Positions 23,811 to 32,326 of a DNA stretch of 64,000 nucleotides are shown here, one piece after another. The DNA lies in contig JBBTWP010000001.1 in the NCBI GenBank assembly GCA_038062675.1, positions 186,059 to 250,058 on the forward strand. The letters run 5' to 3'. Below the pieces are notes generated by a model, which was given only the letters and a program-made list of their open reading frames with translations, was not told where the DNA came from and searched no databases. Numbering within the stretch: the first letter of the stretch is position 1; each line of letters opens with the position of its first letter. Origin of the DNA: Patescibacteria group bacterium (GTDB lineage: Bacteria > Patescibacteriota > Minisyncoccia > Phycocordibacterales > UBA1550). A program made the position numbers and the translations under genes.

Positions 23811-24824
23811 TTATTTCTTTTTTCCTACTGCAAGCATGGTCAAAATGAGGCCAAGCATCTTGTCCTTGTGGGAGGGATCACTCTCGGCAACCAAGAGCGT
23901 GATGGCGGTAAGTGCTGGGGGTGTAATGCGCGAAGTGTCGAGCGCCTTCGCTTTTGCCAGGAACCACACAAACGCATATGCACCACTTCGTTTGTTCCCG
24001 TCGACGAAGGGGTGATTTTTAATAATGAAGTAAAGAAGGTGAGCAGCTTTTTCCTCGACACTTTGATACACATCTGCGCCGCCAAAAGATTGCATGACAT
24101 TTCCCACAATCCCGGCAATACTTCCCCGCTCGCGTTCAGTGGCAAAAAGGTCAGTCGCCTCACCTTTTCCAAGAAGTGATTTTTTAAGTGAAGAAAGAGC
24201 ATCGGAAAAAACATCGGCCGTGAGTTTAACCGATTTTTTTGTAGCACCCTTTGTGATCAAGGTGTCCTTGTCGTATGCGTCGAGAGAAAGCCATGTGTCA
24301 GCAAAAAGCGTAATGAGTTCAAGGACACCCTCTGTATCGATCGCCGTTCCCTTTGGGAGGAGCGCTTTTACGTCAGCTACGGTCTTCAGGAACGCATCAT
24401 AATTCTGTGCGATGCGCGACTTGTTGATGGTGTAGCCGTCGACGATATGAGCGCGTAAAGTTTTTGTCGCCCATTGGCGGAAAATGGTTGCTTTCTTGCT
24501 ATTCACTCGATATCCAACAGAAAGAATCATGTCGAGATTGTAATGCATTACATCACGGTCAACCTCGCGCTTCCCCTCCTTCTGAACTATCCGGAAATTC
24601 CGGAGAGTTGCAGAGGCTGTTAACTCCTTTGTTTTATAGATATTTTTGATATGTTCATTGATGGTACGCACATCCACGTCAAAAGCTGTCGCAATCTGCG
24701 CCTGTGTTGCCCATACGGTTTCCTTGCCAAAGTCGCCCCGAAGCTCGATAGCCCCCGATTTTGCTTGGTAAATCACTGTCTCTTTTTTTGTCGCCTTCGC
24801 TTTCATAATGACGTATTGTAACAC
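23811..24824 (-). CDS. RhuM-like N-domain fused to Fic/Doc family domain
   Basis: RhuM-like TVIYQAKSGAIELRGDFGKETVWATQAQIA. Doc-type motif HPFVDGNKRSGA. Confidence 0.7.
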   Translation of the reverse strand: MLQYVIMKAKATKKETVIYQAKSGAIELRGDFGKETVWATQAQIATAFDVDVRTINEHIKNIYKTKELTASATLRNFRIVQKEGKREVDRDVMHYNLDMILSVGYRVNSKKATIFRQWATKTLRAHIVDGYTINKSRIAQNYDAFLKTVADVKALLPKGTAIDTEGVLELITLFADTWLSLDAYDKDTLITKGATKKSVKLTADVFSDALSSLKKSLLGKGEATDLFATERERGSIAGIVGNVMQSFGGADVYQSVEEKAAHLLYFIIKNHPFVDGNKRSGAYAFVWFLAKAKALDTSRITPPALTAITLLVAESDPSHKDKMLGLILTMLAVGKKK

Positions 24825-26758: not shown

Positions 26759-27262
26759 TTATACAATCTTTACTCTTTGTGTAATCTGCGCCCTTAAGTT
26801 GTCTTCATTTGGGGTTGAAGTTACATGAAGAATAGGAATACCGCAATGATTTAATACCCTATCTACAAATCCGTCACGTAGTTGCCTTTCTGGTTTTTCG
26901 TGTGAGGGGTCATCAAGTTCAATTACTAAAATAGGTGAGATATTCTGCTTATCAAAAAGTACAAAGTCCACCGACTTTAAATCAATTTTGTTTCTGTAGC
27001 CGCTTTTTAGTGAACCCTTGCCACTTAGTAGGACAATTTTATCGAGAGCTAATTGTGGGAAAATATAATATTGACCCTCAACAGCTTTTTCAAGTATCAC
27101 AAAAAACTCATGCTCAGCGCGAGTAAGCAAGTAGGACTTTTTCATATATGGGAGCCACTCTTCTTTTTTGGCTGATTTTCCAAGATCATTTTTCTGAGCA
27201 AGCAACTTAAAAATGAACCCCAGAACAAAGACAATGAGCGCGAGAACTATAAGCTTGTTCAT
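26759..27262 (-). CDS. DUF2726-like membrane-anchored protein
   Basis: N-terminal TM anchor plus NERD/DUF2726-like domain (LVIELDDPSHEKPER). Confidence 0.55.
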   Translation of the reverse strand: MNKLIVLALIVFVLGFIFKLLAQKNDLGKSAKKEEWLPYMKKSYLLTRAEHEFFVILEKAVEGQYYIFPQLALDKIVLLSGKGSLKSGYRNKIDLKSVDFVLFDKQNISPILVIELDDPSHEKPERQLRDGFVDRVLNHCGIPILHVTSTPNEDNLRAQITQRVKIV

Positions 27263-27429: not shown

Positions 27430-28293
27430 TTAGGTAAACAAATTGAATTTGTTGTTATACTGATAATCGTGCAGTTTTTCTATAAAGTTTATCTTTTTTT
27501 CGGCGAAATGATCTTTTGACGGCATAAGGAATTCTTTTATTTTTTTATCTAGCCAAGTAGAAAATTTCTCGCATGAAAACAAAATCAAAAAGAAAAGCAG
27601 AAGTAATGACGGGTTTGATAGTGAAAAATCTCCATACGCCCAGAGATGACCGAAAAAAATGGCGGACGGGAAAGTCGCCAATAAAATGGCAAAAAGAACA
27701 TTCTTTGAGATATAGAAGTACTTGAAAAACGGCTCAATATTTTTCTTCTCGTCTTTAGGCGGAGGATTCTCACCCCTACCATAATGATATTTGTCGATAG
27801 CCGTTTGAATTCGTTCATAACGAGCATCGGATAACCAAAACAAAAATTTCAACACTCTATTGGCTAACTCGTTGAGCATGCGTTTGAAAAAAAGTCTATC
27901 AGAGAGATGATTTGCCACTAAAATCTCTACAAACTCATTCATTGTAAAACTTCTACTTGATAACTGGTGGTTAACTTTTTGGGTCGCATTATCAAATGTA
28001 AATTCGCTACCATCCGAAAAAAAGTTTGTGACTTTTCTTTTGTACTCCTCTCCTTCGGTGATGATATAACTAGTCTTTCCCACCTCTTTTTCGGGCCTAG
28101 TCATTACTACGGAATAAAAAAATCCGCGATCTAGGGCAGCGATTTTGATAAACATCCGCCTTTCATCCTTAAAATAGGGCGTATTTTCCGGATAAAGACG
28201 AATCAGAGAAAATCCCATTTCATTCTGAAATGCTGTGATTGACTCATCGGAGTTTTGGTGTGTATAAAGTTTTACGAATTCATCGCTCTTCAT
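27430..28293 (-). CDS. hypothetical protein with C-terminal TM segments
   Basis: ORF only. AT-rich island gene. Confidence 0.4.
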   Translation of the reverse strand: MKSDEFVKLYTHQNSDESITAFQNEMGFSLIRLYPENTPYFKDERRMFIKIAALDRGFFYSVVMTRPEKEVGKTSYIITEGEEYKRKVTNFFSDGSEFTFDNATQKVNHQLSSRSFTMNEFVEILVANHLSDRLFFKRMLNELANRVLKFLFWLSDARYERIQTAIDKYHYGRGENPPPKDEKKNIEPFFKYFYISKNVLFAILLATFPSAIFFGHLWAYGDFSLSNPSLLLLFFLILFSCEKFSTWLDKKIKEFLMPSKDHFAEKKINFIEKLHDYQYNNKFNLFT

Positions 28294-28315: not shown

Positions 28316-29479
28316 TTATCGATTTCCTTTTGCTCGATTGTGTGTTTTACAGAGCATCTGACAGTTCTTTACTGAGGTAGCGCCACCCTTGCTCCACGCT
28401 GATACATGGTCGGCATCCATTTCGGCTAGCTTCCAAACTTTACCCTTGTTGGCATCATGTCCAAGAGTACAAAGAGGACAGTTCGATTCATTTTTAGCTT
28501 TAGCTTTGTCTGTTTGCGTTGCGTAAACTGACTTTTTTGTTGCTTCGTCAAAAACTCTCACCTCTAGCAGTTTTGTATCGGCTGAACCGCCGAGAATGTA
28601 CTCAAAAATCCCTTTACGGTTTTTGATATACGGATCACCGTAGAGCTTATGTAACTCTCTTGATACCTTAGCGGGGTCGTAAGCTTTCTTGTGGTACTCC
28701 TCATACAGTCGTCCCCACTCAAGACCTTTCATCTCGCTCTCCACATCTTTGAATATACTAGAAACCCACTCTATAACACTATTAAAATATGTTTTTAATT
28801 CAGTGATATTTTTGTTACTACGATGACTACTCATGTAATCGTTGATATTACCTTTGCTCACCCAATCAAGTGCTCGCTCCAGAAACTCCTGCCTGTTTGC
28901 GCTACCTGAGACATACGCACTCCATTTTTGAATATTGGCATTCTGGCTGTTACTAAATTCTTCTTTACCAAGTGTTACAAATGGACCATAATAAACAGCG
29001 TTCAATAACTCTTGATGACTCAAAGGAACACCAGAGATGTTAATCGTCTTAAACCACTCTATTATTTCACTTTCTTTACCTTCACATTCGTAAATGAGTA
29101 GCTTCGATTCCAAAATCTTAATCTGCTTATCTTTAGCAATACCACTAAAATATTGCTCCATACCATTTTCATCCTTAACAGCAAATTTGTCGGTCACGTA
29201 GCGTCCAATACTGGTAATGCGTTGTTGTCCGTCCAAAACTTCAAGGACATCGTCACTGACTTTATTAAAATATATCAATCCAAGTGGGTACCCCTTTAGG
29301 ATTGATTCGATAACGGCAACATCCTTTTTACCATCTGCATAAATATAGTTACGCTGATACTCTGGCTGAATAGTTAATTTGCCTGACAAGCCAAACAACC
29401 CCTTGCCTTCAAGCTCGTTGTAAACAAATCCTTCACAGATATCTTTGACGGTGATGCTAGTTTTTAAAATTGTTTTCAT
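28316..29479 (-). CDS. DUF262 (ParB-like/GmrS) domain protein fused to C-terminal HNH nuclease
   Basis: DUF262 hallmark [11 protein letters not shown]-terminal [13 protein letters not shown]...[15 protein letters not shown]. Confidence 0.7.
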
Positions 29480-29492
29480 ATTATTTTTTTGT

Positions 29493-30098
29493 TTAACTTA
29501 CTATGTCTGGCAAGTCTCGCAATTTCTTGCCTTTATATTTAAAATAATCCGCACCTGCATAAGCTCCACTCTCGTTCAGTTCGCCTCGTTGCTCATAGAG
29601 TTTATACGCGAGCGGAGATAATTTCCAAACCTGACCACCATATTCCACTTCTCGTTCACCGACAATTTTCGCTGTTATTTTTTCATCATCCTTAAAAACA
29701 ATCTCTTCCCCATTTTTCAAACCTTTTTTATAAAAGCTGAACAGTCTGCCTTGTCTTCTCACTTTCGATACTTCATCAAACTCTTTTTCCTGGTCAATGT
29801 TTTCAGGGTAAATAACTTTACCTTTAAATGAAAGTAGGAGCTCCCGAATCAATTCTTGGTCTAGGGCGAATAGTTCACTCTCACCAACTCGGTGTTTATT
29901 AAAAATATCGTGTAAGAGAGTTTCTTTCTCGACATAATCCTCAAGTTCAATTGCAAAAAATCTCTTTAACCCAGCAACATTGTAATAACCATTCGCTTCA
30001 AGGTTTCGCATCCTCTCCTGGTAATTATTTGTGCCTGTTTGTCCGATTTTTATCAAACCTGAAACAGCTGTTGTCGTTATATAAATAATTCCCTTCAT
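29493..30098 (-). CDS. GIY-YIG superfamily (T5orf172-like) nuclease
   Basis: [21 protein letters not shown] (GIY...YIG-like) followed by RMRNLE...N. Stop abuts the upstream methyltransferase gene. Start taken at internal MKGIIY. Confidence 0.6.
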
Positions 30099-30099
30099 A

Positions 30100-31272
30100 T
30101 TATTTTTTATTATGCCTGATAAAAATTCTTTTATACGCCATCTTTGCGACGTTATTTTCATAATAACCAGCTGTTGGGTTACCTTCCTTATATGCGCCTG
30201 TACCACCTGCTTTATAGTAATCGGCAACAAATTCTTTTGTTAAACCTGGTGTTTTCTTAAATTTATCATCAACAATACCATTATCACTTGTTCCTAAAAT
30301 ACTAAATTGTTCCGGAGAATATTTGTCGAGAAAACTAATCGGTACCCCTATAACACCTTTATAATCGCTCGGAATGGCATCAGTAAATGGTACTTCTATA
30401 GCGTCATAATTGTCATAGCGGTTATAGGATTCTTTGCCTTTGACTTCTTTATGTTTGCTGTACTTCAAATTGTCCTCCATAGTCATGAGTGGTAATGGCT
30501 TGTGACGTCGCCCGTGGTCAAGATTGGTAAACCAACAAGAATTACCGAGTCTTGTATAATCACCCACATATCCGAGTCGAGCAGCTTTCTGCTTGTCTTT
30601 TTCGTCAACTTCTGTACCTTTTGGAACGGCAAAAACCATATCACTACCATTTCCAGTCGCCCCCAACCAAGCTTTGTTTTCCTTAATTAGAGGAAAAACT
30701 TCCTTGTAGGTAATCGCGTTCATGTTGCCGATAATCACAAACTGTTTATTGGCTTCCACGATCCACGCCAAAAATTCACGGAACAGCGAGAACGGCGGAT
30801 TGGTAATGATGATGTCTGCCTCATCGCGGAGTTTTTTAATCTCATCACTCTTAAAGTCCCCGTCACCTTTTAAATACCGCCACTCAAGGTCTTCGACATC
30901 TGTCTTGCCGTCACCAGTCTTGTCGTGAGTTAGGGTAAAAATTTTTCCGTTTTTGGAAGTTTTGTTTTTATTGTATTGCGAGTCGTTTGCTTCAAAGAGG
31001 GTCGGCTGATAGTCACTTTTATAGCTCTTGCTATCTGAAGCATAACTGGTACTAATAAGTTTTTTTAAACCGAGTTTCTGAAAGTTTTGAGCTAAAAATT
31101 TTGTAAAGTTGCTCCACTCTGGGTCATCGCAAGGCAATAAAATTATTTTACCCCGAAATGCGTCCGGGTTATATTCCAAATACGCTTCAATCTCTTTTTG
31201 AATATCGTTATACTGCGTATAGAACTCGTCATTTTTTGCCTTTTTTGCGTTTGTGAGATTACTGTTTGCCAT
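30100..31272 (-). CDS. N6-adenine DNA methyltransferase (EcoRI-methylase-like)
   Basis: NDEFYTQ N-terminal motif and IITNPPFS (NPPF motif IV). Confidence 0.75.
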   Translation of the reverse strand: MANSNLTNAKKAKNDEFYTQYNDIQKEIEAYLEYNPDAFRGKIILLPCDDPEWSNFTKFLAQNFQKLGLKKLISTSYASDSKSYKSDYQPTLFEANDSQYNKNKTSKNGKIFTLTHDKTGDGKTDVEDLEWRYLKGDGDFKSDEIKKLRDEADIIITNPPFSLFREFLAWIVEANKQFVIIGNMNAITYKEVFPLIKENKAWLGATGNGSDMVFAVPKGTEVDEKDKQKAARLGYVGDYTRLGNSCWFTNLDHGRRHKPLPLMTMEDNLKYSKHKEVKGKESYNRYDNYDAIEVPFTDAIPSDYKGVIGVPISFLDKYSPEQFSILGTSDNGIVDDKFKKTPGLTKEFVADYYKAGGTGAYKEGNPTAGYYENNVAKMAYKRIFIRHNKK

Positions 31273-31280
31273 AATATTTT

Positions 31281-31310
31281 AATCGAACCTAGATATACAG
31301 CTTCAAAGGG
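31281..31310 (-). repeat. partial copy 1 of tRNA-Gln 3' portion
   Basis: aatcgaacctagatatacagcttcaaaggg, identical to tRNA positions. Its following 28 nt resemble the flank of copy 2. Confidence 0.7.
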
Positions 31311-31338
31311 CAACCTATTGTCGGTTTATGTTCTTGGC

Positions 31339-31380
31339 TGGGAGACTAGGAATCGAACCTAGATATACAGCTTCAAAGGG
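31339..31380 (-). repeat. partial copy 2 of tRNA-Gln 3' 42 nt (att-like direct repeat)
   Basis: tgggagactaggaatcgaacctagatatacagcttcaaaggg, identical to the 3' 42 nt of the adjacent tRNA. Its 5' continuation cannot form acceptor or anticodon stems. Confidence 0.75.
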
Positions 31381-31408
31381 CGGCCTATTGGTGGTTCATG
31401 AAGAGTGC

Positions 31409-31478
31409 TGGGAGACTAGGAATCGAACCTAGATATACAGCTTCAAAGGCTGCTGTCCTACCGTTAGACGATCTCCCA
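31409..31478 (-). tRNA. tRNA-Gln (anticodon UUG)
   Basis: Manual fold of the 70-nt gene: acceptor UGGGAGA/UCUCCCA with a U1-A72 pair, D-stem GUCU/GGAC, anticodon stem GCAGC/GCUGU, loop CUUUGAA, T-arm CUAGG-UUCGAUU-CCUAG. CCA not encoded. Confidence 0.75.
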
Positions 31479-31513
31479 GCACTATTCACGAACAACACCA
31501 ATTCCTACGGACC

Positions 31514-31548
31514 GGATAAAACAGTGTACAGACACTGTTTTATTATCC
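31514..31548. repeat. hairpin repeat 1 upstream of tRNA
   Basis: ggataaaacagtgtacagacactgttttattatcc. Part of an about 100-nt tandem unit that also contains cacgaacaacaccaattcctacgg. Confidence 0.6.
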
Positions 31549-31610
31549 TACCATCAGACGCCCTCTTGAGCCAAGAACACAAACAACGACAATTTCTACT
31601 GCGTAGAATC

Positions 31611-31645
31611 GGATGAAACAATGTACTCACATTGTTTCATTATCC
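31611..31645. repeat. hairpin repeat 2 upstream of tRNA
   Basis: ggatgaaacaatgtactcacattgtttcattatcc. Followed by a degenerate tcctacc...cacaaacaacaccaattcctgcg unit. Confidence 0.6.
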
Positions 31646-31779
31646 TACCGCTCGCCGATCTTCCCTGCACTCTTCACAAACAACACCAATTCCTGCGAAT
31701 TCTGAAAAATAGTGCGTCGTCATAAAATCGTTGACGCTGTCGCCATATTAGCGCGAAATGGCTCTGAAAACAAGCGAAA

Positions 31780-32055
31780 CTAGAACAAATCACTGTGTGA
31801 GCCAATGTCTACGAGCACCAAGACAAGCTTATCGCCTATTATCTGATACATGAGTAAAATATCATTTTGTATATGACATTCACGGAGACTTTTGAGCCCA
31901 CCGGAAAGTTCATGATCTAGATATTTAGGGTCAAGCTTTTTTCCTTGTGCGAGGGCGTCAACCACTTCTTCAAGTTTCGTCGGATTAAAATCTTTGTGGC
32001 GTTTGATACGCTTATGTGCACGCTGGTATCTGCGCGATGGGAAGATTAGATACAT
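31780..32055 (-). CDS. yafQ: type II toxin, YafQ/RelE family mRNA interferase
   Basis: YafQ-like C-terminus LLMYQIIGDKLVLVLVDIGSHSDLF. Confidence 0.8.
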   Translation of the reverse strand: MYLIFPSRRYQRAHKRIKRHKDFNPTKLEEVVDALAQGKKLDPKYLDHELSGGLKSLRECHIQNDILLMYQIIGDKLVLVLVDIGSHSDLF

Positions 32056-32062
32056 GAAACTT

Positions 32063-32326
32063 CTATGCTATCGCATCATGGAGTTCGCGTGCTGTGCGAT
32101 ACCCCTTACCCTTTAAAGCTTCTTTTGCCTCGCGGACCAGTTCAGCCTTTTTTTCTTCAGGCAAAAAATCTGCACTCATGACCGGAAACGGAATAGAGTT
32201 CGTGCGCACAACTTGGGCGAGAAAAAGCTTCACGCCAGTTGACATGTCGAGCCCCATCGCTTGCAGGGCTTTGTTTGCCGCTTTTTTCATCTTGGGGTCA
32301 ATGCGAATTTGTACGGTTGTTGTCAT
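32063..32326 (-). CDS. dinJ: type II antitoxin, DinJ/RelB family
   Basis: Ribbon-helix-helix N-terminus IRIDPKMKKAANKALQAMGL. Immediately upstream of the toxin. Confidence 0.8.
   Translation of the reverse strand: MTTTVQIRIDPKMKKAANKALQAMGLDMSTGVKLFLAQVVRTNSIPFPVMSADFLPEEKKAELVREAKEALKGKGYRTARELHDAIA

Follow-up and report, generated by a model that had tools for sequence, protein, structure and literature searches.

Gene content of the locus

We analyzed a 64,000-nucleotide stretch (hereafter the window) of contig JBBTWP010000001.1 from a Patescibacteria group bacterium, in which three adjacent genes code for a DNA methyltransferase (termed M), a GIY-YIG/T5orf172 protein (termed G) and a DUF262-HNH protein (termed R). 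As a preliminary description of this DNA had reported, the three open reading frames (ORFs) are contiguous and run in the same direction on the minus strand; inspection of the window ORFs and significant domain matches place them and their parts as follows (aa, amino acids).

30100-31272, minus strand: M, an EcoRI-family (gamma-class) N6-adenine DNA methyltransferase of 390 aa, with Pfam and PADLOC matches
29493-30098, minus strand: G, 201 aa, with a T5orf172 (GIY-YIG superfamily) nuclease domain and a C-terminal RAMA-like domain of ~90 aa
29835-30092, minus strand: G residues 3-88, the T5orf172/GIY-YIG nuclease domain, with R29, R31 and E75 invariant
29499-29756, minus strand: G residues ~115-200, a mobile DNA-reader-like domain, with F120, G126, W158 and P162 conserved
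28316-29479, minus strand: R, 387 aa, a DUF262 domain (ParB-like NTPase, DGQQR) and a zinc-type HNH endonuclease

M covers the complete Pfam model EcoRI_methylase (PF13651; E=1e-121), matches the PADLOC profile MTase_II (PDLC03297; 6.6e-88) over its full length, and displays both motifs from which it had initially been recognized, IITNPPFS (with the catalytic NPPF) and NDEFYTQ. Its stop codon (TAA, 30102-30100) is separated by 1 nt from the ATG of G at 30098, so that the two genes indeed abut, with G being 201 rather than the reported 202 aa long. This start codon is supported by homologues that open with MKGIIY, and the listed 245-aa ORF with a TTG start is an upstream extension of G. Residues 3-88 of G match T5orf172 (2.8e-7) and MUG113 (8e-7) in Pfam; the N-terminal part matches PADLOC PDLC05040 (5.2e-52), and residues 2-198 align with positions 5-204 of the 212-position profile PDLC05041 of the PADLOC single-gene candidate PDC-S57 (2.8e-34), for which our literature search found no paper. 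A structure search with the nuclease domain returned weak GIY-YIG fold matches to Slx1, I-TevI and UPF0213. Across the homologue alignment, Arg29, Arg31 and Glu75 are invariant, and we read these as the equivalents of the catalytic residues of GIY-YIG enzymes.

R combines an N-terminal GmrSD_N/DUF262 domain (PF03235; residues 36-163, 2.4e-21) with a canonical HNH domain (PF01844; residues 352-387, 2e-6), and the Pfam scan found no match to DUF1524 (GmrSD_C, PF07510), in agreement with the earlier view that HNH replaces DUF1524 in this protein. The catalytic motifs are intact, namely NPPF in M and QR, DGQQR and the HNH residues in R. Almost the whole of R (profile positions 3-371 of 372) matches the PADLOC REase_II profile PDLC03418 (6.8e-86), which is derived from REBASE, with weaker N-terminal PADLOC matches to NsnA (Menshen) and PD-T4-2_A. 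Its AlphaFold model is poor (mean pLDDT 59); nevertheless, weak fold matches of the predicted terminal domains to ParB, PadC, BrxU (7p9k, prob 0.91) and the Gme HNH domain/HNH nickase support the domain assignments.

The G stop codon and the ATG of R are 13 nt apart. The locus has a G+C content of 37-40% against 45-50% in its flanks, and the M-G-R arrangement of this genome, a groundwater Patescibacteria genome, recurs in replicate assemblies. No NCBIfam model matched M, G or R; PDB sequence searches with the three proteins gave no relevant match, nor did phmmer with G against all PDB chains at E<=1; and a scan for promoters and terminators gave chance-level results only.

The M-R cassette and the insertion hotspot at its junction

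Homologues of R number in the thousands (at least 8,000 were scored), and proteins with 82-87% identity to R of the window are found in Bacteroidota, Chloroflexota, Spirochaetota and many candidate phyla. In the first contexts that we fetched (Anaerolineales, Bacteroidota and other contigs), a gene for an EcoRI-family methyltransferase lies directly upstream of the R homologue, often overlapping its start by 4 nt and with no GIY-YIG gene between them. A metagenome scan with R yielded 80 loci (R at 78-85% identity), whose junctions fall into four states.

M abuts R, with -16 to +5 nt between them and in most cases ATGA as overlap or AAAAAATAAtATGAAAACA: 56 loci
An insert of 0.3-2.7 kb separates M from R: 14 loci
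M is absent within 3 kb upstream: 4 loci
The upstream sequence is too short to judge: 6 loci

M is linked upstream of R in at least 70 of the 74 loci having upstream sequence, and among the 70 informative loci (the 56 adjacent ones and the 14 with an insert) it directly adjoins R in 56, which speaks against the preliminary pairing of M with the GIY-YIG protein as an Eco29kI/Cfr42I-class Type II system. The M-R pair is also carried by plasmids of Enterococcus faecium and Moraxella osloensis, and tblastn matches on Arthrobacter and Pseudarthrobacter plasmids likewise overlap an EcoRI-family methyltransferase gene; the plasmid records list R as a DUF262 or hypothetical protein. A second R subfamily, of 363 aa and ~40% identity, is paired with an EcoRI-family methylase in the same manner. 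The residues Q42 and R43, D83, G84, Q86 and R87, and C334, C337, D357, H358, N372 and C377 of R are invariant, and the corresponding motifs (QR, DGQQR and the Cys4/D-H/N HNH) hold across these ~40%-identical subfamilies. Because the motifs are invariant and the pairing is kept across subfamilies, we regard M and R as a conserved functional unit. The identities of M and R also co-vary (r=0.51, 1770 pairs). Together, M and R very probably constitute the functional pair of this locus, with G an insert. As the methylase-linked half of a conserved cassette, the very widespread DUF262-HNH family appears, from what our searches returned, not to have been described before.

Two loci depart from the simple cassette. 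One metagenomic contig (L055, 1847-7044) carries two tandem M-R cassettes, one per subfamily, the second of which is 42% (M) and 41% (R) identical to that of the window. At another locus (L080, 2461-2937), the gene next to R on its upstream side encodes only 158 aa and, by eye, looks more like a Dam-like (D12-class) adenine methylase than one of the EcoRI family; M could have been replaced there by another methylase family.

Over 60 complete M-R pairs, the pairwise identities have medians of 82% (R) and 60% (M), a trend of R-over-M conservation that the second subfamily shares, and the least conserved stretch of M is its C-terminal 60 residues, which adjoin the junction. Most comparisons of R, and likewise of G, show saturation at synonymous sites and a dN/dS of ~0.02-0.05; the high identities of both proteins therefore reflect strong, long-lasting constraint, and we rejected recent horizontal transfer as the cause of the 80-97% identities.

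In the window, G constitutes a 619-bp insert exactly at the M-R junction, flanked by a direct repeat of AAAAAATAATATGAA with AATT three bases further.

30087-30108, minus strand: upstream junction repeat, AAAAAATAATATGAA(GGG)AATT, formed by the end of M, the M stop and the start of G
29468-29489, minus strand: downstream junction repeat, AAAAAATAATATGAA(AAC)AATT, formed by the spacer and the start of R

The downstream copy is the commonest empty-site sequence of insert-free cassettes, and the empty site AAAAAATAATATGAAAACA is frequent among those in which M and R are adjacent. The same junction accommodates a range of unrelated cargo, including RhuM (7 loci), HEPN-AbiU2 (2 loci), Fic_N+Fic, an 886-aa PHP+SMC-like ATPase, a trypsin-like protease, DUF2130, Bro-N, a 200-aa membrane protein and several genes without a family match. 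Scars at the junction show a turnover of earlier inserts: an AbiU2 gene opens with the first six codons of G (MKGIIY; L083), 12 nt of the G start follow the M stop ahead of a different gene (L094), and a second copy of the R start, 24 and 17 codons long, precedes the cargo (L098 and L103, respectively). No integrase or transposase was found. As a recurrent cargo site with visible turnover, the M-R junction likewise appears to be undescribed.

A RhuM + Fic protein (PADLOC PDC-S23/PDC-S05) is encoded at 23811-24824 on the minus strand of the window, 3.5 kb from R, and RhuM-family genes are the commonest cargo of the M-R junction in other genomes. A 280-aa Bro-N protein is found repeatedly next to G or at the junction (L023, 4617-5459; L010, 1-783; L098, 726-1568). 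Since viral proteins are known in which Bro-N and T5orf172 are fused, this recurrent neighbor may be the split version of a Bro-N/T5orf172 protein.

A bolder view of the junction, which we consider possible yet on balance unlikely, is that the cassette is a pan-bacterial carrier and the junction a dedicated exchange site for third-party defense genes. Its ultra-conserved flanks and junction motif (AAAAAATAAT followed by ATGAAA) would permit the swapping of G, RhuM, Fic and AbiU2, and the swapped cargo would be expressed through translational coupling, making the cassette a miniature integron-like platform inside a restriction operon. The conservation of R would then stem from its role in the carrier, or from SspE-like sensing powered by NTP, and not from cleavage of the usual Type II kind.

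G as mobile cargo with a candidate reader domain

G is absent from 78 of the 80 R loci and present in 2. A scan of species-representative genomes with G recovered 21 loci, in which it occurs in several distinct settings. Some cassettes that closely resemble that of the window carry it between M and R, and in five further loci (L011, L012, L014, L018 and L028) it sits between M and R of the second subfamily, with G remaining 89-95% identical despite identities of 42-45% for M and 36-43% for R. Elsewhere, it precedes a Type I N6_Mtase + Methylase_S pair (L025), an AAA_15/AAA_21 + DUF3226 pair (L020) or an AddB-like UvrD-PDDEXK helicase-nuclease (L017), follows a Hypoth_Ymh gene (L015) or neighbors trigger factor (L026). 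An adenine methyltransferase adjoins G in 15 of the 21 loci, and some loci have no adjacent methyltransferase.

These contexts bear directly on the preliminary model, in which M and the GIY-YIG protein form an Eco29kI/Cfr42I-class Type II system and a separate Type IV enzyme, the DUF262-HNH protein, stands behind it and depends on modification. Such a model accounts for the abutment of M and G in the window, for the GIY-YIG-superfamily domain of G with its conserved Arg and Glu, for the adenine methyltransferases next to G in most of its loci, and for the fact that the DUF262 nucleases characterized to date depend on modification. It is contradicted by the 78 cassettes that lack G, by copies of G that are ~90% identical across cassettes with M at only 42-45%, or that lie beside Type I M+S genes or apart from any methyltransferase, by the lack of a PDB sequence match for G, and by R, which lacks DUF1524 and matches a Type II REase profile end to end. 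As G is constant across divergent M lineages and also occurs with a Type I M+S pair, its specificity cannot track that of its neighbor. With G in 2 of 80 cassettes, next to divergent M lineages, a Type I M+S pair or no methyltransferase at all, it is not a cognate endonuclease of the Eco29kI/Cfr42I type but a dispensable gene that moves independently of M and R. The preliminary model as a whole is highly improbable and appears to have swapped the Type II and Type IV roles.

Comparison of the window with the nearest relative (L006) locates the exchange more precisely: G and R are 96-97% identical and M 76%, so that the exchange boundaries coincide with the edges of G, and the similarity of the two loci ends exactly at the R stop codon. 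Degenerate copies of G also exist, one with its start codon changed from ATG to ATA (L011) and one lacking the N-terminus (L024). Searches of INPHARED and IMG/VR found no phage relatives of G, and we accordingly rejected a phage origin for it.

One explanation of this mobility is that G is a free-standing, homing-endonuclease-like selfish gene that targets the M-R junction and spreads by cutting cassettes that lack it. The architecture of a nuclease with a DNA-binding domain, the presence or absence of G at one exact site, the decoupling of its phylogeny from both flanks, the recombination breakpoints at its borders, the short direct repeats around it and the degenerate copies would all fit such a gene, and the putative homing genes of ICP1 phages are mainly T5orf172 genes (PMC10448857). 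However, many non-nuclease genes occupy the same junction, and insertion there therefore needs no nuclease activity of G. Moreover, the similarity of the flanks ends at ORF borders with no co-conversion tract seen, the low dN/dS (0.02-0.05, with synonymous sites saturated) points to selection on the protein over long periods, INPHARED and IMG/VR hold no relatives of G, and its DNA-binding domain is shared with GmrSD enzymes, unlike the zinc fingers of the phage T5orf172 homing genes. We thus consider homing unlikely.

The preliminary description had left the C-terminal ~100 aa of G unassigned, and Pfam indeed gives no match to this region even at E<=10. The AlphaFold model of G has an overall pLDDT of 74, with values of 82-95 for most of residues ~121-200, and the best PDB matches of this modeled region in Foldseek are two chains of CcrM (6pbd; prob 0.96-0.98, E 0.1-0.18). 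The aligned part of CcrM is its C-terminal RAMA-type domain, which the predicted domain of G thus weakly resembles. Three results weigh against assigning it to RAMA: the Foldseek support is weak (E=0.1); an hhalign comparison of the domain-family profile with one RAMA sequence is equally weak (P=0.0075, 5% probability); and the Pfam RAMA model (PF18755) has no match in G at E<=10 and none in 10 of its relatives at E<=0.001. Because the Pfam model misses it, the domain is at best a divergent sister family of RAMA.

A search with the 98-residue domain against 1.8 billion representative proteins returned 345 matches, in which it occurs alone, or singly or as 2-4 tandem copies behind an N-terminal region of ~100-130 aa; in the two tandem-repeat proteins for which our scan gave a Pfam match, that region is T5orf172. 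The domain also forms the C-terminus of complete GmrSD_N+GmrSD_C Type IV enzymes, one of which additionally carries DUF4357. Some representative proteins (among P0241, P0243, P0246 and P0254) have three or four tandem copies, one of them being 983 aa long and without any Pfam match; these display an uncharacterized repeat architecture composed of the reader-like domain. In defining RAMA, Iyer, Zhang and Aravind (PMC4738411) described its fusion to N6-adenine methylases and to nucleases, T5orf172 among them, and predicted that the domain discriminates m6A; the T5orf172-RAMA fusions were predicted to be m6A-discriminating restriction nucleases (Bioessays 2016, PMC4738411). On the strength of these domain architectures, the T5orf172-RAMA precedent and the adenine methyltransferase neighbors, we posit that G is a nuclease with a restriction-type reader module. 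DNA would be cut by its GIY-YIG/T5orf172 domain according to the modification state sensed by the RAMA-like domain, in a Type IV-like manner independent of the specificity of M. More specifically, we tentatively favor a stand-alone modification-reading nuclease, as the sequence of G is constant beside very different methylases, some of its loci have no methylase, its predicted reader domain is common to GmrSD enzymes and it is under strong purifying selection.

PrrC, an anticodon nuclease, is restrained by EcoprrI, and PrrC and the rlo genes are embedded in Type I loci. By analogy, G might be a guard or second-line effector held in check by M-R and released when a phage inhibits restriction. 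Its position inside a restriction-modification (RM) operon recalls that of PrrC and the Rlo genes, and the alternative cargo (RhuM, Fic and HEPN-AbiU2) comes from toxin- or abortive-infection-associated families. On the other hand, G is intact away from RM genes (L026 and L017) and constant while its M-R partners vary, and we grant this PrrC-like role only a slim chance. DUF262 has itself been noted inside a Type I locus of C. jejuni (PMC3632139).

Predicted activities, island setting and comparison with known systems

The best overall explanation of the locus is, in our judgment, that it is probably a two-gene RM cassette split by a third-party gene. We predict that M would mark host DNA by N6-adenine methylation and that the HNH nuclease of R would cut DNA without this mark, while gating or clamping of the enzyme on DNA is the probable role of the ParB-like NTP-binding DUF262 domain, as in BrxU, GmrSD and SspE. 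With M before R and their codons overlapping or 1 nt apart, methylation should get ahead of cleavage. G would be cargo at the M-R junction, where unrelated defense-island genes replace one another. All of the enzymatic activities are deduced from sequence, and within these bounds R probably restricts unmethylated DNA. Given the M-R linkage and the full-length REase_II match (6.8e-86), R is not a stand-alone Type IV enzyme.

Several observations weigh against this interpretation. The characterized DUF262 nucleases (GmrSD, BrxU and SspE) sense modified rather than unmodified DNA. Restriction enzymes usually diverge faster than their partner methylases, and R shows the reverse, being more conserved than M in 98% of the 1770 pairs. 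At four loci, R lacks an M gene in the 3 kb upstream. The name of R at NCBI is just 'DUF262 domain-containing protein', and the REBASE enzyme that seeded PDLC03418 could be traced neither through the literature nor through the source names attached to homologues of the two R subfamilies. The window does not avoid GAATTC or AATT. Finally, if G reads m6A, its position beside an m6A methyltransferase risks self-targeting.

Alternatively, R could be SspE/GmrSD-like, with its DUF262 domain sensing the m6A of M as a licensing self-signal, or sensing a foreign modification, and its HNH domain nicking or cutting invaders; M would then be a signal generator and not merely a shield. All characterized DUF262 nucleases read modifications, SspE requires the host's own phosphorothioate mark, the fold of R matches BrxU and ParB CTPases, and R, being more conserved than M, does not co-vary tightly with a specificity domain. 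The operon layout points the other way, as do the REase_II profile match and the canonical HNH domain in place of DUF1524: a toxic nuclease is classically encoded behind the methylase that protects against it, with overlapping codons, just as R follows M. We consider an SspE-like R distinctly unlikely and retain restriction of unmethylated DNA as its probable function.

The locus lies at the edge of an island marked by a tRNA gene, which bears out the preliminary view of a composite defense locus beside an integration hotspot.

31407-31478, minus strand: tRNA-Gln(ttg), directly upstream of M, at the island edge
31273-31478, minus strand: tRNA-Gln followed by two head-to-tail copies of the ~45 nt at the tRNA 3' end, with a 70-nt period

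The last of the 3' copies is truncated in the T-loop, 8 nt before the ATG of M, and the array looks like the residue of repeated integrations. We found no distal copy of the tRNA 3' end that would delimit the island and no integrase with the tRNA repeats, and Rfam recognizes only tRNA in the flanking repeats. Upstream of the tRNA (31479-31770, minus strand), there are three degenerate repeats of ~95 nt without an Rfam family match; two of them hold a conserved hairpin (ggtaggataat-aaacantgt...acantgttt), and their starts resemble the 5' half of the tRNA. Beyond these, a YafQ-family toxin and RelB antitoxin pair is encoded at 31780-32326 (minus strand).

On the other side, a 287-aa ORF (27430-28293, minus strand) lies directly downstream of R in a low-G+C stretch; membrane segments are predicted in its C-terminal part, and Pfam, PADLOC, NCBIfam and PHROGs hold nothing that matches it. 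We rejected it as a fourth component of the locus because the nearest relative of the cassette (L006) has an unrelated 286-aa gene at this position, the homology having ended at the R stop. It is followed, still in the low-G+C stretch, by a DUF2726 protein (26759-27262, minus strand). Palindrome avoidance over the 64-kb window was uninformative on the site of M: GGCC (59 observed vs 136 expected) and GATC (135 observed vs 221 expected) are strongly depleted and GAATTC and AATT are not, which suggests past or present restriction systems of the former specificities elsewhere in the genome.

The locus as such is an ordinary-looking defense island, and its interest lies in the families that it connects. 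Thousands of R homologues across phyla are annotated merely as 'DUF262 domain-containing protein' or 'HNH endonuclease'. If R is the nuclease half of a methyltransferase-linked cassette, this large unannotated family would gain a testable function, and the DUF262 nucleases would extend from modification-dependent Type IV enzymes to a methylase-partnered system. A single-junction hotspot in a Type II-like operon offers a simple natural system for defense-gene shuffling, and the list of its cargo is a source of candidate defense genes, several of them outside known families. The C-terminal domain of G, with its occurrence in GmrSD enzymes and tandem arrays, is a candidate reader of DNA modification.

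Among known systems, the cassette resembles Type II RM systems with an EcoRI-family methyltransferase, in that M is a full-length PF13651 protein with NPPF, R matches REase_II end to end, and M comes first in the same direction with M and R translationally coupled. It differs from them in that R is a DUF262 NTPase fused to HNH, unlike R.EcoRI with its PD-(D/E)XK fold, in that R is more conserved than M, and in that the operon tolerates cargo between the two genes. With GmrSD, BrxU and SspE, R shares an N-terminal DUF262 domain with QR and DGQQR, a weak fold match (BrxU 7p9k) and a C-terminal nuclease of the His-Me finger type; however, this nuclease is a PF01844 HNH with a Cys4 zinc site rather than DUF1524, and, unlike GmrSD and BrxU, which act alone on modified DNA, R is nearly always operon-linked to a methyltransferase.

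G, for its part, belongs to the same nuclease superfamily as Eco29kI, Cfr42I and Hpy188I and is methyltransferase-adjacent in the window, but it is dispensable for the cassette, is not bound to one methyltransferase lineage and shows no detectable similarity in sequence to a solved chain. It also resembles the predicted T5orf172-RAMA nucleases (PMC4738411) and PDC-S57, with T5orf172 followed by a small alpha+beta domain whose best match is the CcrM C-terminus, a location mostly beside N6-adenine methyltransferases and a full-length PDC-S57 match; the differences are that the Pfam RAMA model misses its domain and that PDC-S57 is itself a candidate system. The T5orf172 homing genes of vibriophage ICP1 (Barth, Dunham, Seed 2023, PMC10448857) similarly couple T5orf172 to a modular, sometimes repeated DNA-binding region and, like G, are found at the boundaries of genetic exchange with presence/absence polymorphism. 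Unlike G, these genes carry CapR/DUF723-type zinc fingers and reside in phage genomes, whereas G has a RAMA-like domain, no phage relatives and a site shared with non-nuclease cargo. Finally, the embedding of unrelated, strain-variable genes, with RhuM, Fic and HEPN recurring among them, is reminiscent of Type I loci with accessory genes (PrrC in EcoprrI; rlo in Campylobacter jejuni), but here the carrier is a two-gene, Type II-like cassette found across phyla, with a single insertion point between the M stop and the R start.

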